This document shows, piece by piece, positions 6,650-47,574 of a stretch of DNA of 64,000 nucleotides. The DNA lies in NCBI GenBank assembly GCA_964016885.1, contig CAXHJY010001105.1, forward strand, positions 1-64,000, written 5' to 3'. The stretch comes from Eledone cirrhosa. Its lineage: Eukaryota. Both the position numbers and the translations under genes were made by a program. The notes under the pieces were generated by a model, which saw only the letters and a list, made by a program, of their open reading frames with translations, had not been told where the DNA came from and did no database searches. Numbering within the stretch: position 1 is the stretch's first letter; each line of letters begins with the position of its first letter.

Positions 6650-8004
6650 TATATGCCTAGCTTCTCTAAAAATTTTTCGGGGATAGCCGTGGTGGTGGTG
6701 ATCGTATGTCATTGGCTAATTTTCAACCAATCAGAGTACCTCTCTCTATATCTCTTCCACTGTTACTTACGCCTGTTTCTCTCTATCTGTTCCGTCTCTA
6801 TATATATCTCTTACTCTTTCGCTTTGCACTCCTCCCCTTCAATACCATCTCTCCCCCTCTCTATATATTTGTTACTCTATCGCTGCACGCTCCTCTCCTT
6901 CAATATATCAATTACACACGCTTTACACTCCTTTATCCCCAGCGCCCCTATATATACACCCCCCCCTCTCCCGCATCTATATTTTAATGTACCGTTGCAC
7001 CGTGAATATATGTGTCTATATATATATATATACATATATATTGTATATACACATTCATGTATGTGTATACACACTCATGTATGTATATACACTGGTTTTA
7101 TGTGTGTATTGTAAATTTGTACTGTTAAAACACGAAACTAACATTCGATTGACACTTTGATTACCTGTACAGGCAATAGTTATTAGAATGCTGTTGAAGT
7201 GTGTATATATTTTTGGGGGGACATCCTGTATATACACACATTATATATAATACAATAAACAGATAAATACACACATATATATATGAGCTTATTTAATTAT
7301 AAATATTGTGAATTTTTAACTCAGTTCAATTATATATATAAATGGCTTCTACAGGACTAGAACTGTTTCATTCGAAAGAAATCATCATAATATTGAGAGG
7401 GGGGACTAGATAAAATATTTCAAATCAAATGTGTATAAGTTATAAGTTAAAATGTATAAATAGAGACGATAGTGGAGGTATATCTGTTTAGTGGAACAGT
7501 AGACGATAGAATTAAATACAGACGAGAATCTCCCTTTAATGAAACAGCAGACGATAGAATTAAGGCAATTTAAATTTTAAGCATTTGCATTTTTGCCTTT
7601 CATCGTTACGGGGTCGATAAAATAAAGTACCAGTAATACACTGTCACTAGACGACTTTCAAATTGAATTGTTGGTTCCATTTCTTTAGTATTTTCAATTG
7701 TAGTTATCTACTTAAAAAGCGTTACACGGTTAGAGACATAATTGGTAAGTTATATCTTCCCTATTAAACCATTGCATTATTTCGCCTACAAAAATGAAAT
7801 GTTCTTTAAAGAAACAGGAATATAACTTTATAAAAAAAAAAGTTGCATCCGCTTCTTTTATCATTGATAATTTTTTCGTTTTAATATTAATTGTTTTTTG
7901 TAGTTGTTTATATTAAAAATCTTACTGTAATATTTACTTAAACGAAGGCAGACATCCAAACTTATAGATTAATCTTGAGCGAAGGACTAGATAAATCTCT
8001 CTCC

Positions 8005-8039
<35 letters not shown>

Positions 8040-8539
8040 AACGAAGAATGATAACATTTCAAGCAAAGAGTTTAATTAGGTAATGACTTACAAATTTGTT
8101 TCAGTATATAGACAAAGCCTGAAGCGCTAATTATAATAATTAGTTAATAATATTACAAAATATATTAATATTATATTAAATATATACTGAAACCAATCAG
8201 TTTAGCAGAAAGTTTCCAGCCAAGAAACACGCATATTTTGCTATCCTCAAACACGTTTACACATGGCATGAAATATAACTAATCCGAGATGGCTAGGTTT
8301 CATCTTCTAACTGGATATACGAAATCCATTATGTCTTGACAACAACATGAGGTAACATTATGTTATTCACAGACACACTTTGTACACTGTTCCATATCAG
8401 AATGTATTTCCTTCGTCACATTCACAAACAGTATTGAAAATATGTTCTTCGGCAAATAAAAATGTTTTGTTCATAATATTTCAACTAGCGATTGCTCTAC
8501 TCCACGCACGACCACCATAAATTAATGACCAGCTCAACA

Positions 8540-8710
8540 CAAGTATTGGTAGAGCGTCAGACACCATGCTTTGCAGTATTGTTATGGTCCTTTGCATTCT
8601 AAGTTCAAATCCTGCCGAGGTTAACTTCGACTTTCATACTTACTAATTCGATAAAATAAAGTACCAGTAATGGACTGCCGTAATGGATTTGTGCCGAAAA
8701 ATAGAAACAC
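8540..8710 (+). mobile_element. Decayed Deu/Nin-type tRNA-SINE
   Basis: B-box-like GTTCAAATCC followed by GCCGAGGTTAAC...GATAAAATAAAGTACCAG, shared with 19670-19861. Confidence 0.6.
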
Positions 8711-9265
8711 TATTAATGTGCAATAAGAGCAAAATATAACGACATTGCTCAATTATTTTATCTAATGTTGTAATAACACAAGGAAATGTTGTTTGTGTAT
8801 TTTTTTTTATATTTGCTCATAGGCTTTTACAATTTCGCTCAGCCAACAACTATTAAAAAGTGAGTTGCTTAAGATAACAATTTAATCACAAATTGTTGCT
8901 ATCTTTTAATACACTCCAACAAGTCATCAAATTATGTACAATAAAAACAAATCTTATTAATTTGCTCAGGGAATATAAAGAAAATGTATATACACTGATA
9001 ATTGCAATTGTATGTAAATATTTTGTTTTTGTATTGTATATTTTATGTTTTCTATTATGTATAATATATTGATTTAATATTGATTGTTTTTTGTAGTTGT
9101 TTATATTAAAAGTCTGAAAATATTTTTATACATCTTACACTAATATTTATAAGATAATTTATAATAACAATTACATAATCTAATTACATTACAACGATAA
9201 TTTATTATTAATATATATCCTGTTTAACTAGAGTTATTACAAGCGTTGCCTTAAAAAAATATTAA

Positions 9266-10222
9266 ACTAGACATGAAAAATGCGCAAGCTCAAAAGTGCC
9301 ACAGAATGTTATAATAAACCTTCAAAAGTGTGGGACTAGAGTTGTTGCTAAAAAATATTGTAATCATTATATATCGTACATTCTGTGGCATCCTTTATAA
9401 AAATAGCTTAAACCAACGAAGCCTTTATTTTTACGCTATTTCACTTAGTTAATTCTTAGAGTGTAACATATAAAAATAAATACATCTATGTTTAATGTAA
9501 TAACAGCTATAAATAATTACGTAATATTATTATCATATACTCATAGTAACAAAATAATTGTGTTGAAACTTAATATGATGCTTATATGAACGATCAAATC
9601 TATAATGATAATTTCTTAAATATACTAATAGTAAACTAATTTAGTTATCTATTGTTACATTTTCATAGAACTATAATATTAACAATCGTATTGCATTATC
9701 AAATTTTTATCACTACAAACTTTCATATTGGAATTACCTTAAGCCACTTATTATTACTTCGCTTTCGTACTTTTACAGCTGTAGATATTGCGCTGTATCT
9801 TATATCTAACATCAATATCTCGTGGTAATTTGCATGAAGTGTAAAATAGGTTTATTAATAACTTTAATATGAAATGTATTATACAGGGCTGCGGAGTCGG
9901 CCAAAAATTGACTGGCTCCAACTCAGGATCCGATACTCCATTATTTCCTAAATTTCAGCTCCGCAGCTCTGTTATTATATTAATTAATTTATTTTATAGT
10001 TGTAAATCATATTTTTATATGTTACACTCTAAGAATTAACTAAGTGAAATAGCGTAAAAATAAAGGCTTCGTTGGTTTAAGCTATTTTTATAAAGGATGC
10101 CACAGAATGTACGATATATAATGATTACAATATTTTTTAGCAACAACTCTAGTCCCACACTTTTGAAGGTTTATTATAACATTCTGTGGCACTTTTGAGC
10201 TTGCGCATTTTTCATGTCTAGT
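9266..10222. repeat. ~213-bp inverted repeat (arms 9266-9478 and 10010-10222)
   Basis: The arms are reverse complements (ACTAGACATGAAAAATGCGC... / ...GCGCATTTTTCATGTCTAGT). Repeated at ~59863-60908. Confidence 0.92.
9884..9971. mobile_element. Tiny hAT-like MITE
   Basis: TIRs CAGGGCTGCGGAG / CTCCGCAGCTCTG with an imperfect 8-bp TSD (gtattata / ttattata). Confidence 0.6.
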
Positions 10223-12404: not shown

Positions 12405-12690
12405 GAGTGTATGTTTAAGGGAAGGTTGGTCTTCTGTATTACTGCATAGCACCAAACATCTCGATTCTCTGTCATTGTCTTAAATACATTTAAGTGTTCA
12501 AGGTCAGCTTTTATCACCTCATCCCAGGTTTTTCTGGGTCTACCGACACCGTAGCTTTTTTATACTTTTTTATACAGCTATCGTCCTTCATACACATCAC
12601 GTGGCCATACCAACGTAGTCTCCTCTTGAGTAAACAGCATCTGATCCCTCTTATTCCTAATTTCTCACTTAGTTCATTTATGCTTTGCAG
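12405..12690 (-). mobile_element. RTE LINE 3' fragment
   Basis: Minus strand encodes RRLRWYGHVM-like C-terminal RTE motifs, as at 29335-29778. Confidence 0.65.
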
Positions 12691-13676
12691 TAGGCTTTAC
12701 CTCACATAATACCTCACATAACATTTACATTACTCTATATATACTATTGTATTTTCACAGTAAAGGCTTTACCTCACATAACATTTACATTACTCTATAT
12801 ATACTATTGTATTTTCACAGTAAAGGCTTTACCTCACATAATACCTCACATAACATTTACATTATATATATACTATTGTATTTTCACAGTAAAGGCTTTA
12901 CCTCACATAACATTTACATTACTCTATATATACTATTGTATTGTCACAGTAAAGGCTTTACCTCACATAATATCTCACATAACATTTACATTACTCTATA
13001 TATACTATTGTATTGTCACAGTAAAGGCTTTACCTCACATAATATCTCACATAACATTTACATTACTCTATATATACTATTGTATTGTCACAGTAAAGGC
13101 TTTACCTCACATAATATCTCACATAACATTTACATTACTCTATATATACTATTGTATTGTCACACTAAAGGCTTTACCTCACATAATATCTCACATAACA
13201 TTTACATTACTCTATATATACTATTGTATTGTCACAGTAAAGGCTTTACCTCACATAATATCTCACATAACATTTACATTACTCTATATATACTATTGTA
13301 TTTTCACAGTAAAGGCTTTACCTCACATAATACTTCACATAACATTTACATTACTCTATATATACTATTGTATTTTCACAGTAAAGGCTTTACCTCACAT
13401 AATACTTCACATAACATTTACATTACTCTATATATACCATTGCATTTTCACAGTAAAGGCTTTACCTCACATAATATCTCACATAACATCTCGTATACGA
13501 GAGACGTGTGTTGACGTGTGTGAACAAGCTCGGCTACCGAGTCGGATTTACTTACTCAAAAGTGAGTTTTGATTAATTTTTTTATACTGTAATATACGTT
13601 AACCCCTTGCCTTGGTCGTCAAACTTTGAGTTTATTTATTTTCCAGTTAAAAACTTATTACGGCAAACTAATAGAA

Positions 13677-15435
13677 ATGGATGGAATTTTCACATCTCAT
13701 CCTAACGTGAAAGCCACGCCCCCTAAGAAAGGTGATACAGAGAAGCTAGAAGCACAAGGCTCTAAGTCTTCCCTCCTCACTTCTGCAAAAGAAACATGGA
13801 ACACGGAATTAAAAGAAAAATTTGTAAAAATGGGTGAAAACCCAGAAGGTCACATAAACGCAGACAAAAACAACAACGACAATAACAGCAATAGTCACAA
13901 CACCAACCAAGGAAAAAATAACGATAACACCAAACAAAGCGAACCCACTACTGGTGCCTCCTTTGCACAGGCGGTCCGGAAAATACAAACCTGCAAGCAA
14001 CTGGACATTACAACTCTGAGAGAAAAGATGAAGGAAGCGAAACAGTATGTAACTTTCAAAGAAGGAGGAGACTTCACAATCACCTCCCCACAAGAAATCA
14101 AAAGAGACACGACGCTAAGAACGATATCTTTCAGAACAATTTCCAACATAACAAGGAAACCAGCTCAATTATCCCAAAAAGAGATTGAGCTGGTCCTAAA
14201 AATGTGTGGAGTGATATATCGTTCATACAAAAAGGGCCACTCTATGGGAATATAACGGTTCTAATGAAGGATCAATTGACGGACAGGAAATACTCTGTGG
14301 TGCCAATTGTTTCCAAGCTACATACATTTTCCCCCACATATTTAGGGAAAAGAACGCAGAAAATAAGGGTCTCCAGAATCCGGCCAAATGCATGCATTTC
14401 CTGGGTACTAACAGGATTTTTAGAAGACGAGGACGGAATCCTCTCAGTAGGAGAAGTCACCACAGACGTTTTCGGCGGTTTGAGCGTGGAGGTTCTGGTC
14501 CAAATGAGACCAGAACGAATAGCTAGAATACCACAGAGGGTGTCCCTCGATGGAGAAACATTTATATACATTTCAGCCGAGGGTAGGAGGCCCATATGTT
14601 ACTACTGTTCAAGCAGGGGTCATCTAAGGGCTGCTTGTCCTCAATTGACAAAAAAAAAGGCTCTTTTGCCTACACCCACACACTACCACCACCACCACCA
14701 CCACCACCACCATCTCCACCACCACCACCTCCACCACCACCACCACCACAACAACAACAAAAACAACACGGAAAAATAACACATGACACGGCCCCACCCA
14801 AAACAACTCCCAAAACACACACAAGTACAACAAAACCCCAAAATACACCACTACCCGACAGCACGGACGAGGACCCAGCTGAAACGGCACCTAGTGACGA
14901 AGAGGGGGAACCCTTCCAACCTGTAAAAAGGAAAAAAAGAAAGCACCACTCGAACATAAACGAAACAAACACACAACCACCAACAAAAACAAAACAAACA
15001 GAACAAACAAAATCCGCCCCACCCCAAAACATAACACATACAACAAAACGTAAGCACACACAAGAACAACAAACAAACACAACACAAATAAAACAGTATA
15101 CATACATTAACACAAATAACAAAGAACTAGTAAAAACAATACACAAAGACCCTTCGGTGGAAACTGAAGGGCAATTCTTTGCAAGCGTGGCCAACAAACC
15201 GCATTTAAAAAGGATAAGACTCCCAATGGACACCTATGCAAAACTAAGAGAGAACTTTCCTGAGGACGTGGGGAAAACATGTACTCGACCCTATAACCGC
15301 GTCCTCTTGAAACGTTTCCCCACCCACACCTCACCAAACACCCCCACTCCACCACAGAACAACACCCCACCAAACAACCCCTCCAATACGCCCATGGATA
15401 TTGTACAACCTGCTCCTCAGGAGCCGAACAGGTAG
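13677..15435 (+). pseudogene. Tx1 ORF1 (gag-like, zinc knuckle, poly-Pro), frameshifted
   Basis: Split over ORFs 13626, 14204 and 14596 by indels. Confidence 0.8.
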
Positions 15436-15456
15436 GTCCTTCCTCTTTTAACCAAC

Positions 15457-18350
15457 ATGGCTGATATAAGAGTTGGGTGTCTGAATGTACGCGGCCTGGG
15501 ACTGTCTTGGAAACAAGGCAAACTTTTAAACGATCTCAGGTCGCATAGAATGGATGTAATGGCTATTTGCGAGTCCAGGATCAGCAGCGAGCACCAACTG
15601 GCGCCCCTCTTCGACAACTTTGAGATCTTCGCATCTCTCTGTCAACCGGGGGGTGGGGGTGGAGTTGTCGTTCTGCTGCAAAAACACCTGGGCCTCGCCA
15701 TACAGAAGGTGCACCTGGACCCGGAGGGTCGACTGGTGGTTTTAGACGTCGGCAGTAGTGAAAGTGGAGCCCTTAGACTAATAGCTGTGTACGCCCCTTT
15801 TTGGGCAGCGCGGCCGGAATACTTCCAACGTCTGGAAACTTTTCTGGGAACGTCCCGCTCCTTGCTTTTAGTGGGGGACTGGAATGGTATCCTGGATGCA
15901 CGTTGGGACTATGTAGGGGAATGGCCTTAGACCAGTTCTTTGAGGTGAAGCATGAAGGCTGCGTTGTCAGGAGTAAAATACATGCTCTGGGTAATGAGGG
16001 AGCCAAAGCTGTGAGCTGGGCCCGAGTGACAGAGGCAAAAAGTGGGAACAAGTCCACGATTCGGTCTTTGAAGGACCAGGATGGGCGTGTGATCCTTGAA
16101 CCTGGGCAGATGTGTGCGGCCTTTCAGCGGGATTTTGCACGACTGTTCGAGAGGGGCGGCGCGCCGGGTGAGACTATGGATTTCAATCCATACCTCGACG
16201 GTCTGCCGCGCCTCTCGGACGCGGAGGCGAAGTCCTGCGAAAGGACGATTTCAGCTGCTGAGATAGGGGCGGCGCTGAGCCAATGCGGCAAACGCAAATC
16301 CCCGGGTCTCGATGGTCTACCATACGAGCTATATGTAGCGATGCCGGACTTGTTCTCCGATATCCTCGAAGCGGTCTACTGCAACTGGCAGCAGAACGGG
16401 AGAATTCCCAGTTCTGTGACCAAGGGCGTAGTTATGCTGGTGAGGAAGGATGAGAACAAGGGGGATGACATAAGTAACTTCAGGCCCATAACTCTGCTAA
16501 ATACAGAGTTAAAGATTTTGGCCAAGGTGTTAGCGAAGAGGTTGGCGCTTGTCGTTGGAAACCTGGTGGGAGAAGCGCAGACATGCGCAATCCCGTCCAG
16601 GTCAATTCACGACAATCTCCACCTTATGCGATACATCATAGAGAGGGTAGGGAATGAACCCGGCTTTGGTGGGGCCCTGATCAACTTGGATCAATCTAAA
16701 GCTTTCGATAGGGTTGACCATCGTTACCTGGATGCAGTGCTCACGGCGGCAGGCTTCGGACCCGTTTTCAGGGGTTGGATTGCTGCGATGCACAGCAACA
16801 ACGTCTGCTCAAGGGTCAAGGTGAACGGCCACCTCTCGGAGCCGTTCCAAATCATGCGAGCCATCCGACAGGGATGCCCTCTCTCCTCCCTTCTGTATGT
16901 GCTGGCTCTTGAGCCACTACTGCGGAAGTTGGAGCGGTTGCAGGGCATCCCTTTGGAACCAGGATTGCAGAAAGCGGCGTCGGCCTACGCCGATGACGTG
17001 ACAGTAATGGTGTCGAAAACCTCGCAAATCGGTGAGATCGGCACCTTACTGGAGGAATATGAAAGGTTTACAGGAGCCAAGCTGAACCGGGACAAGTCCG
17101 TCGGTTTGCAACTCGGAACATGGAGAGGCAAACCGATGCCCTCCAACGACGTCGTCGGACGCTGGACGGAAGGCCCGGTGAAGCTGCTTGGGGTCTGGTT
17201 CGGACCAGACCTCCAGGTGGAGAAAAACTGGAACGAGGTAACGGCCAGGGTGTTTGCACTCACCCAGAAGTGGGCCCAGTGCAAACTATCCCTGAAAGGT
17301 CGAGCGGAGGTGGCGAATACTTATATAGCATCCGTCATCTACTACCGCTTGACCGTCATGCCTTGCCCAGTGAAAAGACTCGCCAAAATGGAGTGCGCGC
17401 TGTTCCAATTTCTTTGGAACAAGCGGACCCCTTTGGTGAGGAGATCCATCTGCTGTCAACACCCTTCGAAAGGAGGGCTGGGGATGCCGTGGCTACAGAT
17501 GCGTAAACACGCATTAAGGCTACGGCACCTCCAGGTATTCCTCACCGGTCAACCGGTGTGGGCCCCGTTTCTGAGGCGAGCCTTTCCCAGACTCGTCTCG
17601 CTCACCGAGCTGCAATCCTGGGTCAAGCAAAGACCGAGAAAAGTGGGCGACTGGCACATTGAATGTGCCCAGGTGCTAACGGCCCTCTGGAAAGCAGACC
17701 CGGCAATCAGTGGAGACTCCACGTCGACATTCTATAGAGGGTTGGTACGCAGCAGGTGCGACGATGCTCTCGGAGAAGCTCTAGGCATGGAGGAAGATGA
17801 ACTGGCCAGTCTGTTTGGTAGGACGTTTGGCCCTGGACCGATGGACAACTTCCAAAAGTCCCTGGCTTGGCAGTGCTACCGAGGGGCTCTACCCGTTCAA
17901 GACAAGCTCCACTGGCATGGGAGCCTGGGTAGAGATCCTTTGAATAAGATCTGTCCGAGATGCGTGCATGATGGCGAAACCGTTGCGCACGCATTCGTAC
18001 ACTGCCCAGGCATTGCTGACCTGTGGGGCTATGTGGAACGACTACTGTCGAGGGTGGGACCAATCCGGTTGACCACCGAGTCCATTGTCACGATCAAACC
18101 GCCTCCCCCTTTCAAAAACGAAGGAGAGGCGGTTTTTCTCTGTGTGATAGCCATGGCTAAAGAAGTTGTATGGTGGACGAGGCTGAAAGGGCTGAGGTCA
18201 GACACCTTTCTCTCCGGCCAACAACTGGTCCCCTTTTTCAAATACCATTTTAAAAGAAGGATCAGAATGGAGAGAGGGGTTATATTTTTGTACTCGTTAA
18301 TTATATGTAAACTTCCCCCCTTGTATCTGTCCCTACCTTTTGTGCCCTAG
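15457..18350 (+). pseudogene. Tx1 ORF2 (APE endonuclease + RT), disrupted
   Basis: Relative to copy 2, ~526 bp are deleted at ~15920 (frameshift) and ~240 bp at ~18278 (loses C-terminus and part of 3' UTR). Confidence 0.9.
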
Positions 18351-30763: not shown

Positions 30764-32332
30764 ATGGAGGATGTTAAACACTTGGACATTTCTACCACAT
30801 CTGTTTTTACCAATATAGATACAGTTACACAAACATACAGGGATGAGAAACCTACCAATATAGATACAGTTACACAGACATACAGGGGTGAGAAACCTAC
30901 CAATATAGATACATTTACACAGACATACAGGGGTGAGAAACCTACCAATATAGATACAGTTACACAGACATACAGGGGTGAGAAACCTACTAATATAGAT
31001 ACAGTTACACAGACATACAGGGGTGAGAAACCTACTAATATAGATACAGTTACACAGACATACAGGGGTGAGAAACCTACCAATATAGATACAGTTACAC
31101 AGACATACAGGGGTGAGAAACCTACCAATATAGATACAGTTACACAGACATACAGGGGTGAGAAACCTTTACCTAATGAAACATGTACTGAACAAGGATC
31201 TTTAAACAGAAATATTCCTGAATATTGCTGTGAGATTTGTAAGAAAACTTTCTCTTCAGAAGATGAAGTAGTCAGACATAGAGAGATACATACCAGGGAA
31301 AAACCGTTCCATTGTGACATATGTGGGAAATCTTTTGACTATAAAAGTGTCTTCAGTATTCACAAACGAAGTCATACAGGAGAAAGACCTTGCCGTTGTG
31401 AAACGTGTGGAGAATCTTTTGTTAAAAACAGTGATTTAAAGAGACATAAAAGAACTCACACAGGAGAAAAACCGTACCACTGTGACATATGTGGGAAATC
31501 ATTCTCTGTTAATTCAAATCTTATAACTCACAAACATAGTCACACTGGAGAAAAACTGTGTTGTTGTGAAATATGTAGGAAATCTTTTGTCAAAAAGAGT
31601 GACTTAAATAGACACAAAAGAATACACACTGGAGAACGACCCTATCACTGCGACATGTGTGGGAAATCTTTTACTCAGAAATCTACTCTTGTTAATCACA
31701 TACGAAGTCACACAGGAGAAAAACCCTGTCATTGTGAAATATGTGGGAAATCTTTCTCTGTTAGTGCTGGTCTTATTAATCATATGCGTAGTCACACAGG
31801 AGAAAAACCTTTCCAATGTGAAATGTGTGACAAGTCTTTCAGTAACAAATCTCATCTTGTTTCTCACAAACGTAGCCACACTGGAGAAAAACCTTTCCAA
31901 TGTGAAATGTGTGACAAGTCTTTCAGTAACAAATCTCATCTTGTTTCTCACAAACGTAGCCACACTGGAGAAAAACCTTTCCAATGTGAAATGTGTGACA
32001 AGTCTTTCAGTAACAAATCTCATCTTGTTTCTCACAAACGTAGCCACACTGGAGAAAAACTCTTCTACTGTAAAATATGTGATAAATCTTTTGTCCGTAA
32101 CACTGATTTAACAAAACATGTAGCAACACACACTGGAGATAGACCCTACCATTGTGTAGTGTGTGGTAAAACATTCTCTGATAATGCCAGCCTTCAAGTT
32201 CACAAGCGAACACACACTGGAGAAAGACCCTTCCATTGTGTTATATGTGGAAAATCGTTTGTCACTAACAGTAACTTAAACAGACACAAACAAATTCACA
32301 CTGGAGGGAAACCATTTAACTGTGAAACATGA
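30764..32332 (+). CDS. C2H2 zinc-finger protein, 522 aa, 13 fingers, N-terminal 8 x 15-aa repeat
   Basis: Splice acceptor tcacag at 30737, ATG at 30764. There are 13 CxxC-x12-HxxxH motifs joined by TGEKP-type linkers; fingers 8-10 are identical. Confidence 0.85.
   Translation: MEDVKHLDISTTSVFTNIDTVTQTYRDEKPTNIDTVTQTYRGEKPTNIDTFTQTYRGEKPTNIDTVTQTYRGEKPTNIDTVTQTYRGEKPTNIDTVTQTYRGEKPTNIDTVTQTYRGEKPTNIDTVTQTYRGEKPLPNETCTEQGSLNRNIPEYCCEICKKTFSSEDEVVRHREIHTREKPFHCDICGKSFDYKSVFSIHKRSHTGERPCRCETCGESFVKNSDLKRHKRTHTGEKPYHCDICGKSFSVNSNLITHKHSHTGEKLCCCEICRKSFVKKSDLNRHKRIHTGERPYHCDMCGKSFTQKSTLVNHIRSHTGEKPCHCEICGKSFSVSAGLINHMRSHTGEKPFQCEMCDKSFSNKSHLVSHKRSHTGEKPFQCEMCDKSFSNKSHLVSHKRSHTGEKPFQCEMCDKSFSNKSHLVSHKRSHTGEKLFYCKICDKSFVRNTDLTKHVATHTGDRPYHCVVCGKTFSDNASLQVHKRTHTGERPFHCVICGKSFVTNSNLNRHKQIHTGGKPFNCET
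30809..31168 (+). repeat. 45-bp coding minisatellite x8 (TNIDTVTQTYRGEKP)
   Basis: Seen directly, in frame with the ZNF. Confidence 0.95.
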
Positions 32333-32407
32333 AACACCTTTCTCTTAAAAATCTAAATTTATTCTCCACCAACTACTGAATAGGGAACATTTATCAAGGT
32401 GAAATAT

Positions 32408-32930
32408 ATCATCATCATCATTTTTTGTCCACTTTTCCTTGCTTGCAAGGGTAGGACAGCTCCTATTCAGCACAGCATCTCTCCATTCATCACAGTCCTT
32501 TGTCATCTCTGTGAGCTTCAGTGATCTGAGGTCTGTTCTCACCACCTCCGCCCATGTTTTTTGTGGTCTTCCTCTACTGCGTCTTCCGTCTACTGGGATT
32601 TCTTGGCACTTCTTTACCCAACGGTCATCCTCCATGCGCATCACATGTCCATACCAACGCAGTCTTCTGTCCTGCACACTATAACTTATCCCTCTTAAAC
32701 ACAGTTTCACTCTCAACTCGTCCATGCTTGGTCGTTCACACACATTGATATTGCATGGAGCATACTTGCTTCATTTCTCTCCAGCCGTCGCATATCCTCT
32801 GCAGTTGCTGCCCATGTCTCACTACAATGCAGCATCGCACATCTCACACAGGCATCATATAACTGGCCTTTTGTTCATAGAGAGAAACCCATCTTTGTCA
32901 ACAGAGGCAGCAGCTCCCTAAACTTCTCTT
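32408..32930 (-). mobile_element. RTE LINE 3' fragment with (GAT)n tail
   Basis: RRLRWYGHVMRMEDDRWVKKC...RGRPQKTW. Confidence 0.85.
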
Positions 32931-32934
32931 TAAG

Positions 32935-35691
<2,757 letters not shown>

Positions 35692-35819
35692 TTAACCCTT
35701 TAGCATTCACATTATTCCATATTTACTATTGTATTTTCACACAACATTTACATTACTCTATATATACTATTGTATGCTCACAGTAAAGGCTTTACCTCAA
35801 ATAATATCTCACATAACAT

Positions 35820-38800
35820 CTCGTATACGAGAGACGTGTGTTGACGTGTGTGAACAAGCTCGGCTACCGAGTTGGATTTACTTACTCAAAAGTGAGTTAT
35901 GATTTATTGTTTTTGTACTGTAATATACGTTAACCCCTTGCCTGGGTCGTCAAACTTTGAGTTTATTTATTTTCGCCCCTTTTTGGGGCGAATTTTCCAT
36001 TTAAAAATCTATTACAGCAAACTGATAGAAATGGACGGAATTTTCACATCTCATCCTAACGTGAAAGCCACGCCCTCTAAGAAAGGTGATACAGAGAAGC
36101 TAGAAGCACAAGGCTCTAAGTCTTCCCTCCCCACTTCTGCAAAAGAAACATGGAACACGGAATTAAAAGAAAAATTTGTAAAAATGGGTGAAAACCCAGA
36201 AAGTCATAAACGCAGACAAAAACAACAATGACAATAACAGCACGACCAACAACAGCAATAGTCACAACACCAACCAAGGAAAAAATAACGATAACACCAA
36301 ACAAAGCGAACCCACTACTGGTGCCTCCTTTGCACAGGCGGTCCGAAAAACACAGACCTGCAAGCAACTGGACATTACAACTCTGAGAGAAAAGATGAAG
36401 GAAGCAAAACAGTATGTGACTTTCAAAGAAGGAGGAGACTTCACAATCACCTCCCCACAAGAAATCAAAAGAGACACGACACTAAGAACGATATCTTTCA
36501 GAACAATTTCCAACATAACAAGGAAACCAGCTCAATTATCCCAAAAAGAGATTGAGCTGGTCCTAAAAAATGTGTGGAGTGATATATCGTTCATACAAAA
36601 AGGGCCACTCTATGGGAATATAACGGTGCTAATGAAGGATCAATTGACGGCCAGCAAATACTCTGTGGCGCCAATTGTTTCCAAGCTACACACATTTTTC
36701 CCCACATATTTGGGGAAAAGAACGCAAAAAATTAAGAGTCTCCGGAATCCGGCCAAATGCATGCATTTCCTGGGTACTAACAGGATTTTTAGAAGACGAG
36801 GACGGAATCCTCTCAGTAGGAGAAGTCACCACAGACGTTTTCGGCGGTTTGAGCATGGAGGTTCTGGTCCAAATGAGACCAGAACGAATAGCTAGAATAC
36901 CACAGAGGGTGTCCCTCGATGGAGAAACATTTATATACATTTCAGCCGAAGGTAGGAGGCCCATATATTACTACTGTTCAAGCAGGGGTCATCTAAGGGC
37001 TGCCTGTCCTCAATTGACAAAAAAAAAGGCTCTTTTGCCTACACCCCACACACCACTACCGCCACCACCACCACTACCACCACAACAACAACAAAAATAA
37101 CACAAGACACGGCCCCACCCAAAACAACTCCAAAAACACACACAAACACAACAAAACCCCAAAATACACCACTACCCGACAGCACGGACGAGGACCCAGC
37201 TGAAACGGCACCTAGTGACGAAGAGGGGGAACCCTTCCAACCTGTAAAAAGAAAAAAAAGAAAGCACCACTCGAACATAAACGAAACAAACACACAACCA
37301 CCAACAAAAACAAAACAAAACAAACAGAACAAACAAAATCCACCCCACCCCAAAACAACACATACAACAAAACGCAAGAACAACAAACAAACAACACAAA
37401 TAAAACAGTATACATACATTAACACAAATAACAAAGAACTAGTAAAAACAATACACAAAGACCCTTCGGTGGAAACTGAAGGGCAATTCTTTGCAAGCGC
37501 GGCCAACAAACCGCATTTAAAAATGATAAGACTCCCAATGGAAACCTATGCCAAACTAAGAGAGAACTGTCCTGTGGACGTGGGGGAAACATGTACTCGA
37601 CCCTATAACCGCGTCCTCTTGAAACGTTTCCCCACCCACACCCAAGACACCCACACCTCACCAAACACCCCCACCCCACCATAGAACAACACCCCTCCAA
37701 TACGCCCATGGATATTGTGCAACCTGCTCCTCAGGAGCCGAACAGGTAGGTCTTTCCTCTTTTAACCAACATGGCTGATATAAGAGTTGGGTGTCTGAAT
37801 GTACGCGGCCTGGGACTGTCTTGGAAACAAGGCAAACTTTTAAACGATCTCAGGTCGCATAGAATGTATGTAATGGCTATTTGCGAGTCCAGGATCAGCA
37901 GCGAGCACCACCTGGCGCCCCTCTTCGACGACTTTGAGATCTTCGCATCTCTCTGTCAACTGGGGGGTGTGGGTGGAGTTGTTGTACTGCTGCGAAAACA
38001 CCTGGGCCTCGCCATACAGAAGGTGCACCTGGACCCGGAGGGTCAACTGGTGGTTTTAGACATCAGCAGTAGTGAAAGTGGAGCCCTTAGACTAATTGCT
38101 GTGTACGCCCCTTTTTGGGCAGCGCGGCCGGACTACTTCCAACGTCTGGAAACTTTTCTGGGAACATCCCGCTCCTTGCTTTTAGTGGGGGACTGGAATG
38201 GTATCCTGGATGCACATTGGGACTATGTAGGGGCATGTGCCAATAGAGGGGGGTGTAAAAGCCTCAAAAGGTTAATCGGCCGATTTGACCTGGCCGATAG
38301 ATAGCGACTAGATTTTCCGACTGTACCACTATGGACGTGGACCAATCGCAGCGGAATATCTAGGTCGTACCTAGATAGGGTCCTAGTTAGAGATAAGGAT
38401 AGGGACACATTTAGCTGTCCAAAAATGTTCATGGTTGACTATTCGGATCACAAGTTAGTGACCTGCATAGCCAACCTTGATAGAACCCATAGACAGGGAC
38501 CCGGTTACTGGAAGCTGAACTTATCCTTACCGACAAGCAAAGCTTACAGTAAACGGATTAGCACGTTAGTTAAGCAGAGTTTGACAGGGGCAATTGTCAA
38601 CAACAGGTGGTGGAGCTCTCTTAAGAGAGCAATTAGAATAGAATCCATAGGTTTTAGTCAGGAATTAGCAAGGGATAGGAACAAGATGGAAAGGGAATTA
38701 GTAGATAGAGTAGAAGAGGCGATTAGGAGTGGCAATGTAGCCGGCGTGCTGGCATCAAGAATGGCCTTAGACCAGTTCTTTGATGTGAAGCACGAGGGCT

Positions 38801-41443
38801 GCGTTGTCAGGAGTAAAATACGTGCTCTGGGTAATGAGGGAGCCAAAGCTGTTAGCTGGGCCCGAGTGACAGAGGCAAAAAGTGGGAACAAGTCCACGAT
38901 TTGGTCTTTGAAGGACCAGGATGGGCGTGTGATCCTTGAACCTGGGCAGATGTGTGCGGCCTTTCAGCGGCACTTTGCACGACTGTTCGAGAGGGGCGGC
39001 GCGCCGGGTGAGACTATGGATTTCAATCCATACCTCGACGGTCTGCCGCGCCTCTCGGACACGGAGGCGAAGTCCTACGAAAGGACGATTTCAGCTGCTG
39101 AGATAGGGGCGGCGCTGAGCCAATGCGGCAAACGCAAATCCCCGGGTCTCGATGGTCTACCATACGAGCTATATGTAGCGATGCCGGACTTGTTCTCCGA
39201 TATCCTCGAAGCGGTCTACTGCAACTGGCAGCAGAACGGGAGAATTCCCAGTTCTGTGACCAAGGGCGTAGTTACGCTGGTGAGGAAGGATGAGAACAAG
39301 GGGGATGGCATAAGTAACTTCAGGCCCATAACTCTGCTAAATACATAGTTAAAGATTTTGGCCAAGGTGTTAGCGAAGAGGTTGGCGCTTGTCGTTGGAA
39401 ACCTGGTGGGAGAAGCGCAGACATGCGCAATCCCGTCCAGGTCCATTCACGACAATCTCCACCTTATGCGATACATCATAGAGAGGGTAGGGAATGAACC
39501 CGGCTTTGGTGGGGCCCTGATCAACTTGGATCAATCTAAAGCTTTCGATAGGGTTGACCATCGTTACCTGGATGCGGTGCTCGCGGCGGCAGGCTTCGGA
39601 CCCGTTTTCAGGGGTTGGATTGCTGTGATGCACAGCAGCAACGTCTGCTCAAGGGTCAAGGTGAACGGCCACCTCTCGGAGCCGTTACAAATCATGCGAT
39701 CCATCCGACAGGGATGCCCTCTCTCCTCCCTACTGTATGTGCTGGCTCTTGAGCCACTACTGCGGAAGTTGGAGCGGTTGCAGGGCATCCCTTTGGAACC
39801 GGGATTGCAGAAAGCGGCGTCGGCCTACGCCGATGACGTGACAGTAATGGTGTCGAAAACCTCGCAAATCAGTGAGATCGGCACCTTACTGGAGGAATAT
39901 GAAAGGTTTACAGGAGCCAAGCTGAACTGGGACAAGTCCATCTGTTTGCAACTCGGAACATGGAGAGGCAAACCGATGCCCTCCAACGCCGTCGTCGGAC
40001 GCTGGACGGAGGGCGCGGTGAAGCTGCTTGGGGTCTGGTTCGGACCAGACCTCCAGGTGGAGAAAAACTGGAACGAGGTAACGGCCAGGGTGTTTGCACT
40101 CACCCAGAAGTGGGCCCAGTGCAAACTATCCCTGAAAGGTCGAGCGGAGGTGGCGAATACTTATATAGCATCCGTCATCTACTACCGCTTGACCGTCGTG
40201 CCTTGCCCAGTGAAAAGACTCGCCAAAATGGAGTGCGCGCTGTTCCAATTTCTTTGGAACAAGCGGACCCGTTTGGTGAGGAGATCCATCTGCTGTCAAC
40301 ACCCTTCGAAAGGAGGGCTGGGGATGCCGTGGCTACAGATGCGTAAACACGCATTAAGGCTACGGCACCTCCAGGTATTCCTCACCGGTCAACCGGTGTG
40401 GGCCCCGTTTGTGAGGCGAGCCTTTCCCAGACTCGTCTCGCTCACCGTGCTGCAATCCTGGGTCAAGCAAAGACCGAGAAAAGTGGGCGACTGGCACATT
40501 GAATGTGCCCAGGCGCTCACGGCCCTCTGGAAAGCAGACCCGGCAATCAGTGGAGACTCCACCTCGACATTCTATAGAGGGTTGGTACGCAGCAGGTGCG
40601 ACGATGCTCTCGGAGAAGCTCTAGGCATGGAGGAAGATGAACTGGCCAGTCTGTTCGGTAGGACGTTTGGCCCTAGAACGATGGACAACTTGCAAAAGTC
40701 CCTGGCTTGGCAGTGCTACCGAGGGGCTCTACCCGTTCGAGACAAGCTCCACAGGCATGGAAGCCTGGGTAGGGATCCTTTGAATAAGATCTGTCCGAGA
40801 TGCGTGCATGACGACGAAACCGTTGCGCACGCATTCGTACACTGCCCAGGCATTGCTGACCTGTGGGGCTATGTGGAACGACTACTGTCGAGGGTGGGAC
40901 CAATCCGGTTGACCACCGAGTCCATTGTCACGATCAAACCGCCTCCCCCTTTCAAAAATGAAGGAGAGGCGGTTTTTCTCTGTGTGATAGCCATGGCTAA
41001 AGAAGTTGTATGGTGGACGAGGCTGAAAGGGCTGAGGTCAGACACCTTTCTCTCCGGCCAACAACTGGTCCCCTTTTTCAAATACCATTTTAAAAGAAGG
41101 ATCAGAATGGAGAGAGAGGTGCTCTACCCCAGCAAGTTTTATGAAAGGTGGGTGAAAGTAGGGAGAATGGCCAGAGTGAATGGGTCTTCTCTCTATATCA
41201 GCCTGTAGGTGAAAGAAGAGGAAAAAGAGGAGACGAGGGAAGCACCTACTCTTTGTGCTCCTGAGGAGAAGGGTTGCACATTTTTTCCGGGGTGTGTGCG
41301 ACCCATGTTAATGCCCCCTCCCTATTGAGGACTTCGTTTGTTGTTGTTATTTCATTGTTATATTTTTGTACTCGTTAATTATATGTAAACTTCCCCCCTT
41401 GTATCTGTCCCTACCTTTTGTGCCCTAGTGGCAAATAAAGAAA
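35820..41443 (+). mobile_element. Tx1/L1-clade non-LTR retrotransposon, copy 2 (full length, ~5.6 kb)
   Basis: Same ORF1/ORF2 motifs and the same termini as copy 1. Confidence 0.95.
37771..41208 (+). pseudogene. Tx1 ORF2 with two in-frame stops (TAG at 38302 and 39346)
   Basis: ORFs 37771, 38425 and 39358 share a frame. APE motifs GDWN, YLDRVLV and SDH; RT YADD; C-terminal zinc finger. Confidence 0.9.
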
Positions 41444-42545
41444 CCACTCTATATATACTATTGTATTGTCACAGTAAAGGCTTTACCTCACATAATATCT
41501 CACATAACATTTACATTACTCTATATATACTATTGTATTTTCACAGTAAAGGCTTTACCTCACATAATATCTCACATAACATTTACATTATTCTATATAT
41601 ACTATTGTATTGTCACAGTAAAGGCTTTCTCTTACATAATTATCTCACATAATATTTACATTACTCTATATATGCTATTGTATTTTCACAGTAAAGGCTT
41701 TACCTCACATAATATCTCACATAACATTTACACTACTCTATATATACTATTGTATTTTCACAGTAAAGGCTTTACCTTACATAATATCTCACATAACATT
41801 TACATTACTCTATATATACTATTGTATTTTCACAGTAAAGGCTTTACCTCACATAACATTTACATTACTCTATACTATTGTATTTTCACAGTAAAGGCTT
41901 TACCTTACATAATATCTCACATAATATTTACATTACTCTATATATACTATTGTATTTTCACAGTAAAGGCTTTACCTCACATAATATCTCACATAACATT
42001 TACACTACTCTATATATACTATTGTATTTTCACAGTAAAGGCTTTCTCTTACATAATTATCTCACATAACATTTACATTACTCTATATATACTATTGTAT
42101 TTTCACAGTAAAGGCTTTACCTCACATAATATTTCACATAACATTTACACTACTCTATATATACTATTGTATTTTCACAGTAAAGGCTTTAGCTCACATA
42201 ATATCTCACATAACATTTACATTACTCTATATATACTATTGTATTTTCACAGTGAAGGCTTCACCTCACATAATATCTCACATAACATTTACATTACTCT
42301 ATATATACTATTGTATTTTCACAGTGAAGGTTTCACCTCACATAATATCTCACATAACATTTACATTACTCTATATATACTATTGTATTTTCACAGTGAA
42401 GGTTTCACCTCACATAATATCTCACATAACATTTACATTACCCTATATATACTATTGTATTTTCACAGTAAAGGCTTTCTCTTACATAATTATCTCACAT
42501 AACATTGAATCTATGAGATTTTGATATTATTTAATTTGAGAATAA

Positions 42546-42749
<204 letters not shown>

Positions 42750-47533: not shown

Positions 47534-47574
47534 TTTAACAATTTCTTAACTAAAAATACCCTTTGTTAAATATA

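Follow-up and report, generated by a model that had tools for sequence, protein, structure and literature searches.

The stretch analysed here (the window) comprises 64,000 nucleotides of DNA from Eledone cirrhosa (contig CAXHJY010001105.1, positions 1 to 64,000). It holds two copies of a long interspersed nuclear element (LINE), each lying in tandem 72-bp satellite units of a piggyBac-type miniature inverted-repeat transposable element (MITE), and a further, LINE-free MITE with about six units (Table 1). Copy 2 lies in a complete host with TTAA on both sides (35696-42632). Copy 1 carries two large deletions, of 526 bp near 15918 and of 238 bp near 18278. The reading frames of both copies are broken, ORF2 of copy 2 by two in-frame stops. 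Both copies have the junctions ...CTCACATAACAT|CTCGTATACGAG ... AAATAAAGAAACC|ACTCTATATATAC, with CC present in each. Their p-distance is 2.6% (4801 aligned columns), and the right arms of their hosts differ by 15.4%. An earlier note on this DNA had described the LINEs as sharing register and orientation within the 72-bp unit, as much more alike than the right ends of their hosts, and as accompanied by an empty MITE at 50855-51421, all of which was borne out. Together with the genome-wide results below, these observations make it highly probable that about 300 young copies of this LINE derive from many independent insertions at TTTACATT^ACTCTATA in the internal segment of a piggyBac-type MITE that is itself old, the likely mechanism being target-primed reverse transcription at a sequence-specific nick, and that full-length copies import at least 25 nt of upstream repeat, likely as the head of a co-transcribed RNA annealing with the target.

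Table 1. Features of the window around the two LINE copies. TIR, terminal inverted repeat; ORF, open reading frame; UTR, untranslated region; APE, apurinic/apyrimidinic-type endonuclease; RT, reverse transcriptase.
Feature	Position	Strand	Remark or basis
Host 1 left array, 72-bp (and 60-bp) units	12690..13424	+	abrupt start near 12690, without left TIR
65-nt unit 5' of LINE copy 1	13425..13489	+	distal part (about 13461-13489) probably LINE-carried head, judged from other loci
14-bp palindrome TCTCGTATACGAGA	13489..13502	.	5' junction; tip of predicted hairpin of satellite head and first ~33 nt of LINE
LINE copy 1	13490..18367	+	5' UTR, frameshifted ORF1 (13593-15435), ORF2 from 15436; 3' terminus AATAAAGAAACC, without poly(A)
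Host 1 right array, 14.7 units	18368..19425	+	begins at ^ACTCTATA insertion point
Host 1 right arm, TIR and TTAA	19426..19567	+	TIR end ...TAAAGGG (19563)
C2H2 zinc-finger repeat array	30482..35691	+	host 2 inserted in array end; 84-bp repeat resumes after 42636
Host 2 TTAA, left TIR CCCTTTAGCATTCACATT and short diverged first unit	35692..35754	+	terminal sequence same as autonomous piggyBac
65-nt unit 5' of LINE copy 2	35755..35819	+	distal part (about 35791-35819) probably LINE-carried, judged from other loci
LINE copy 2	35820..41445	+	full length, 5626 bp; ORF1 frameshifted; ORF2 37750-41208 (APE, RT, zf-RVT)
Host 2 right array, 14.9 units	41446..42506	+	sequence
Host 2 right arm; TIR reaching 42632, then TTAA	42507..42636	+	sequence
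LINE-free MITE, TTAA on both sides	50851..51425	-	sequence

An intact genomic copy encodes an ORF1 of 616 aa (stop to stop) and an ORF2 of 1152 aa with APE (PF03372, E 2.7e-12), RT (PF00078, E 1.7e-27) and zf-RVT (PF13966, E 2.3e-6) domains. Both frames were open in 21 of the 92 copies sampled. The best PDB match of ORF2 was human L1 ORF2p (E 1.7e-53), R2 reached E 3e-23, and the nearest named homologue came from another cephalopod, Argonauta hians (68% across the part that includes the RT). With APE, RT and a C-terminal zinc motif, a fixed 3' end and variable 5' truncation accompanied by target-site duplications (TSDs), the element is an APE-type non-LTR (LTR, long terminal repeat) retrotransposon of the L1 group. 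Tx1-clade elements have an ORF1 with a CCHC zinc knuckle. The match to this motif in the present ORF1 was weak (PF00098, E 0.0074, 16.8 bits, below the 20.8 cut-off). A target-sequence preference, a trait of many Tx1 members that is not by itself diagnostic of the clade, is present. The homologues retrieved included none under the name Tx1L, Keno, Kibi or Koshi. The LINE is a putative, though likely, member of the Tx1 clade.

A 26-mer from the LINE 3' end, taken without flank, had 276 exact matches in the genome, and ACTCTATA followed within 6-14 nt in 269 of them. Because these 3' ends agree and a reversed-pattern control for the 3' register gave 0 matches, the shared register is not due to chance. 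Three of the seven exceptions were inspected and had kept the register with one target letter changed. The detailed sample comprised 101 rows, namely 99 genomic loci (L numbers; three are segmental copies of L073) and the two window copies. All 101 rows terminated with AAAGAAAYC|ACT, and 90 of the 93 full-length rows started after CTCACATAACAT (as CTCACATAACAT|CTCGTA). Genome-wide, exact 5' junction 29-mers numbered 298 and exact LINE-start 21-mers 302 (the patterns are not strictly nested); most copies are therefore full length. The target 23-mer was present 43,343 times, and the MITE left end had 10,630 exact matches. Eight of the 101 rows were truncated at the 5' end, and truncated copies kept the 3' register. 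The sequence-specific insertion proposed in the earlier note, which had named this behaviour of truncated copies as a check, thus holds genome-wide.

To examine the 5' junction, we asked whether alleles common to the two next units upstream are retained in the unit adjacent to the LINE; L067 and L072 were left out. At unit positions 37-65 next to a full-length LINE, neighbour-shared alleles were retained in 0/16 events (13 loci), compared with 30/51 in the controls (p=1.7e-5), whereas the figures for positions 1-36 were 24/34 next to the LINE and 56/82 in the controls. The 3'-adjacent unit behaved as the controls did, and this comparison detected no 3' read-through of the satellite. The switch point was bracketed between positions 28 and 41 in L149 and between 36 and 41 in L183. 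Since host alleles were lost only at positions 37-65, we infer that the distal 25-29 nt of the upstream unit arrive with the LINE and that it is mostly the host unit upstream to which they are joined. The carried piece is likely an RNA head. The alternative that the upstream unit is wholly donor-derived was rejected, as variation at positions 1-33 is not linked to how closely the LINEs are related (2.36 versus 2.17 differences). In a model fold of the equivalent region of L178, the predicted hairpin of head and LINE start had z -2.4 to -2.8. Rfam gave no ribozyme for the 5' end, its single match being a chance one to an sRNA (E 1.3), and a simplified descriptor of a hepatitis delta virus (HDV)-like ribozyme, uncalibrated and used without a positive control, gave 0 matches.

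Some loci suggest that more than a head can be carried. In L070, 17 units and the LINE lie at the non-MITE site TTTACGTT^ACTCTATAT, and L072 has two units of the 72-bp type before a LINE that is surrounded by another satellite, of 41-43 bp; whole units thus appear to have been brought to foreign sites at least twice. In L145, one consensus unit precedes a diverged host. The 41-43-bp satellite of L072 (G000:C20:6281617-6291616) consists of the MITE left end and the unit start, has internal inversions and includes the LINE target. In L145 and L148 (C1 near 10.99 and 11.03 Mb), a non-autonomous LTR-like element lies directly upstream of the 65-nt unit and the LINE. L148 reads, in order, satellite, a 150-bp piece of the LINE 5' end, the LTR-like element over about 620 bp, a unit and a full LINE, which may reflect either 5' transduction with a template switch or recombination. 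A SINE-like (short interspersed nuclear element) insertion was found in the array spacer of L091/L130 in identical register with a CATTACTCTATATATACT duplication, and a related copy lies at window positions 19680-19865, to the right of host 1. Two further candidates were discarded: the apparently off-target L055/L132 represent an array interrupted by another insertion, and L109/L111, which resembled a second family at the same site, carry an LTR-like element upstream.

Among the eight truncated rows, five had duplications of 1-10 nt starting from the nick (A, AC, ACTCTA, ACTCTATAT and ACTCTATATA). The earlier note had reported that about 7 nt of target (TTACATT) are missing. This is correct for full-length copies but does not stand as a general target deletion, given these short TSDs and an upstream 'flank' that seems to be partly delivered by the LINE.

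We hypothesized that ORF2p would nick the bottom strand opposite ACATT^ACTCT, with the 3'-OH acting as primer. Transcription would begin within an upstream unit; speculatively, TATATATA at unit positions 5-12 could be a promoter, with a start near positions 36-41. Once paired to the unit that precedes the nick, the cDNA copy of the head would prime the second strand. Such pairing would produce the invariant junction and the apparent loss of TTACATT, and would re-create an identical upstream context at every new copy. A cDNA that stopped early and lacked the head would be linked to a top strand whose cut lies a few bases farther downstream, and RNAs starting farther upstream would deliver whole units.

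Two other models of the 5' end were weighed against this mechanism. In the first, the top strand is cut at a fixed point 7 nt upstream without any RNA head, and the consensus-like upstream unit stems from target choice or from later gene conversion among LINE copies. The invariant -7 junctions of full-length copies, and of truncated L086, which likewise begins at -7, would agree with such a cut. We nevertheless regard it as improbable, since consensus distal sequence occurs in arrays whose displayed neighbours all have private alleles (L149, L157, L158 and L179), L134 lies in a one-unit host without an upstream unit, units occur at foreign sites in L070 and L072, and conversion should alter the 3' flank too, which is unaffected. 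The second model, a TSD of ~65 bp at every full-length insertion with the gain of one unit per event, could explain L096, where 51 nt with rare variants are identical on both sides between the left TIR and the terminal unit. Against it, the 5'- and 3'-adjacent units agreed over their first 33 nt in 22/74 loci, no more often than unrelated neighbours did (23/65). As a general model it is very unlikely, but some one-unit hosts may be cases of a ~65-bp duplication.

The independence of the insertions was assessed with the 58 loci that remained once L067, L074-76, L139 and L141 (six rows, duplicate or truncated), rows without a detectable arm and rows with <4 kb of LINE had been dropped. The mean difference was 1.24% for the LINE (ORF2 and 3' UTR) and 17.7% for the host right arms (minimum 6.1%), and the two sets of distances were uncorrelated (Mantel rho 0.027, p 0.40). 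One pair of LINEs was 0.03% apart, with corresponding host arms 14.5% apart. Arms <5% apart were found in 0/1653 locus pairs, and among these loci the same LINE in the same host was not seen at unrelated TTAA sites. The position of the LINE in the array was variable, with 1-26 units on the left and 1-24 on the right. The two window copies share 2 derived sites versus 25 and 40 private ones, and each ranks low in relatedness to the other (87 and 86 of 91). Their first two 3' units are identical, which is real and uncommon (3/69 loci, window copies included). The earlier note took this identity as a fit to duplication or conversion; the identity stands, but the shared and private sites speak against a shared origin. 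Its proposal of independent insertions in diverse hosts agrees with the missing correlation, and its suggestion that the LINE may ride along with a moving MITE finds no counterpart among the 1653 pairs.

The remaining explanation, that one or a few ancestral insertions were multiplied by duplication, conversion or piggyBac transposition of a MITE and LINE composite, could draw on the identical 3' units of the window copies, on segmental duplicates and tandem copies and on a young autonomous piggyBac with matching ends, but as a general account it is refuted and has almost no probability left, because host arms are <5% apart in none of the 1653 pairs, LINE and host distances are uncorrelated, the LINE lies at varying positions (1-26 units upstream, 1-24 downstream), truncated copies keep the register and the window copies are not close relatives (ranks 87 and 86 of 91).

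Several observations weigh against independent, head-guided insertion or narrow its basis. Segmental duplicates are present whose shared flanks run past the TIRs, so that the loci are not all independent; some tandem trains hold near-identical copies and spacers; and L157 and L158 are neighbours. Because of the segmental duplicates and the near-identical train members, not every LINE copy is a separate insertion event. The 10-kb sample was taken from the best-matching or first-listed matches and is non-random. The TATA and start-site idea depends on two bracketing loci (L149 and L183). Truncated L086 and L147 stop within the unit, at position 65 and at about position 41; a deletion, or a long duplication containing a mismatch, accounts for them better than a short TSD does. 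Truncated L139 is disrupted, and L070 could be a rearrangement instead of a transduction.

Two trains consist of six and five full-length LINEs, each in one array (G000:C1:4218000-4262999 and G000:C10:40721000-40753999). Their spacers are 65, 137, 281, 713 or 1433 nt of satellite, and some neighbours are near-identical, others 0.3-0.8% apart. Flanks are shared across contigs in a mosaic fashion: L066, L073-76 and L140 have a common left outer flank, and L066/L067 and L073-76/L139 share different right flanks. The pattern suggests ectopic exchange in distal regions.

A sister LINE family has 72.7% aa identity over residues 476-1152 (endonuclease 62%, RT 77%). Its 3' end, AATAAA(T)GAAA, was closely followed by (ATT)n in 30/30 loci, and (ATT)n also preceded the 5' end in the five loci displayed. 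The sister family is abundant and spread through chromosome interiors. Its loci L350-L361 have open ORF2 frames of 1195-1204 aa, often as tandem pairs with (ATT)n between. A target switch in an (ATT)n-targeting relative was probably the origin of the MITE-targeting family; this direction is suggested by the abundance of the sister family and by microsatellite targeting in known Tx1 families (PMC4494074).

The basic host MITE is ~220 bp long with one copy of the internal segment. TTAA was present at the right end of 36 of the 38 complete empty copies, whose mean pairwise difference was 14%. The MITE ends matched those of a piggyBac encoding PF13843 in 21/22 nt at one end and at 68% over 154 nt at the other. 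Judged by these sequences, the host is a piggyBac-type non-autonomous element, as the earlier note had stated. Its satellite had also been called self-amplifying, which we do not uphold: the MITE is old (14% pairwise) and mostly has one unit. Beside a MITE end, L343 has a transposase that belongs to another, separately inserted piggyBac and not to the MITE interior. The piggyBac with the matching ends, young and autonomous (L321-L329, e.g. G000:C1:205014261-205018313), has a 561-aa open frame, and identity between its copies reaches 100% over 2.5 kb. Composite movement of MITE and LINE is possible in principle; none was seen.

Among 63 MITE ends listed on C1, multi-unit arrays occurred at 10/30 distal matches versus 0/33 interior ones (p=2e-4); the LINE matches on C1 and C2 are also distal. 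In LINE-bearing arrays, an ascertained set, the difference between loci was 6% for internal units and 11% for first and terminal units, compared with 14% for one-unit MITEs. Because internal units are more alike than terminal units and one-unit MITEs, unit homogeneity requires exchange between loci. The LINE is one vector shown to do this, and ectopic conversion is the alternative. Tentatively, the LINE may even build its own habitat: reverse transcription primed at the same nick would copy satellite-bearing RNA into one-unit MITEs or other sites, thus seeding and homogenizing the 72-bp arrays that serve as target and promoter. One junction is common to arrays although their arms are 18% and their internal units 6% apart, arrays share the distal zone with the LINE, and units have apparently been delivered to foreign sites, all consistent with this idea, which we nevertheless consider doubtful. 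Ectopic gene conversion in distal regions accounts for most of the evidence equally well, and several LINE-free arrays have host-private alleles throughout (L198, L202 and L219).

Elsewhere in the window, the C2H2 arrays (30482-35691 and 42637-42740) include a 616-aa open frame (30482-32332) with a 45-bp repeat and a frameshifted 84-bp array (33049-35679). Identical short tandem repeats (7042/57715 and 9008/59605) and motif pairs (9184/59781 and 9655/60252) in 7042-9655 and 57715-60252 suggest a segment duplicated about 50.6 kb apart. One 61-bp tandem repeat occurs on opposite strands (21855-23439 and 50235-50762), the first occurrence following an RT-like C-terminal fragment (21199-21801). 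Further LINE-like frame fragments lie at 28942-29778 and, on the minus strand, at 47546-48250, the latter with a 96-bp internal tandem repeat.

The LINE offers a clean high-copy case of a transposon specialized on another transposon, with many intact copies. With these and the (ATT)n-flanked sister in one genome, the basis of an APE target switch is directly testable. The host-allele test provides sequence-level evidence for homology-led 5' joining outside ribosomal DNA (rDNA), which bears on how LINEs complete second-strand synthesis and on why full-length copies make up almost the whole of some families. If it is true that the LINE seeds its target satellite, a retrotransposon would make its own safe harbour and satellites would have a new route of spread.

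Insertions of Tx1L in Tx1D of Xenopus laevis have a 23-bp TSD, and internal tandem repeats belong to this system too. Tx1L, a non-LTR element of APE type, has a specific insertion sequence inside the non-autonomous piggyBac element Tx1D (PMC4494074, PMC1950540, PMC6719617). The analogy drawn in the earlier note is apt in that both systems use a specific site in a non-autonomous piggyBac host. They differ in phylum and target sequence, and full-length copies of the octopus LINE show the apparent 7-nt loss and the putative carried head. Crocodilian Tx1-Mar and Tx1-9_AMi and teleost Kibi/Koshi, all of the Tx1 clade, target Mariner, Harbinger or (TC)n/(TTC)n, and targets change within the clade (PMC4494074); unlike in these families, here an (ATT)n-flanked and a MITE-targeting family, 62-77% identical by domain, coexist in one genome. 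For Octopus vulgaris, 13 recently active L1-Tx1 families are given in Table 1 of a study whose main text contains the words 'target' and 'satellite' 0 times (PMC13282606). Our literature searches found no description of such an element in a mollusc, with Repbase, Dfam and supplements outside the search, so that the family may be catalogued.

In how its 5' end is joined, the LINE resembles R1 of the Drosophila melanogaster type, without any claim to membership of the R1 clade. Full-length R1A insertions have a precise small target deletion, ascribed to co-transcribed upstream target annealing to the site, and R1 also has truncated copies with TSDs, upstream target taken to off-target sites and tandem arrays (PMC2718515). 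The precise deletion, the truncated TSDs and the upstream target at foreign sites recur here. However, R1 resides in 28S rDNA and is transcribed with it, whereas the target of the LINE is a selfish dispersed repeat, whole units are apparently carried and ORF2 is L1-like. In R2, uniform 5' junctions correlate with RNAs on which up to 36 nt of upstream 28S target are retained (PMC3774820); the R2 5' end is made by an HDV-like ribozyme, of which neither Rfam nor our uncalibrated descriptor found a counterpart in the LINE. Taken together, each ingredient has a precedent, and what is new is the combination, with a satellite head that is probably carried and units that are apparently delivered.

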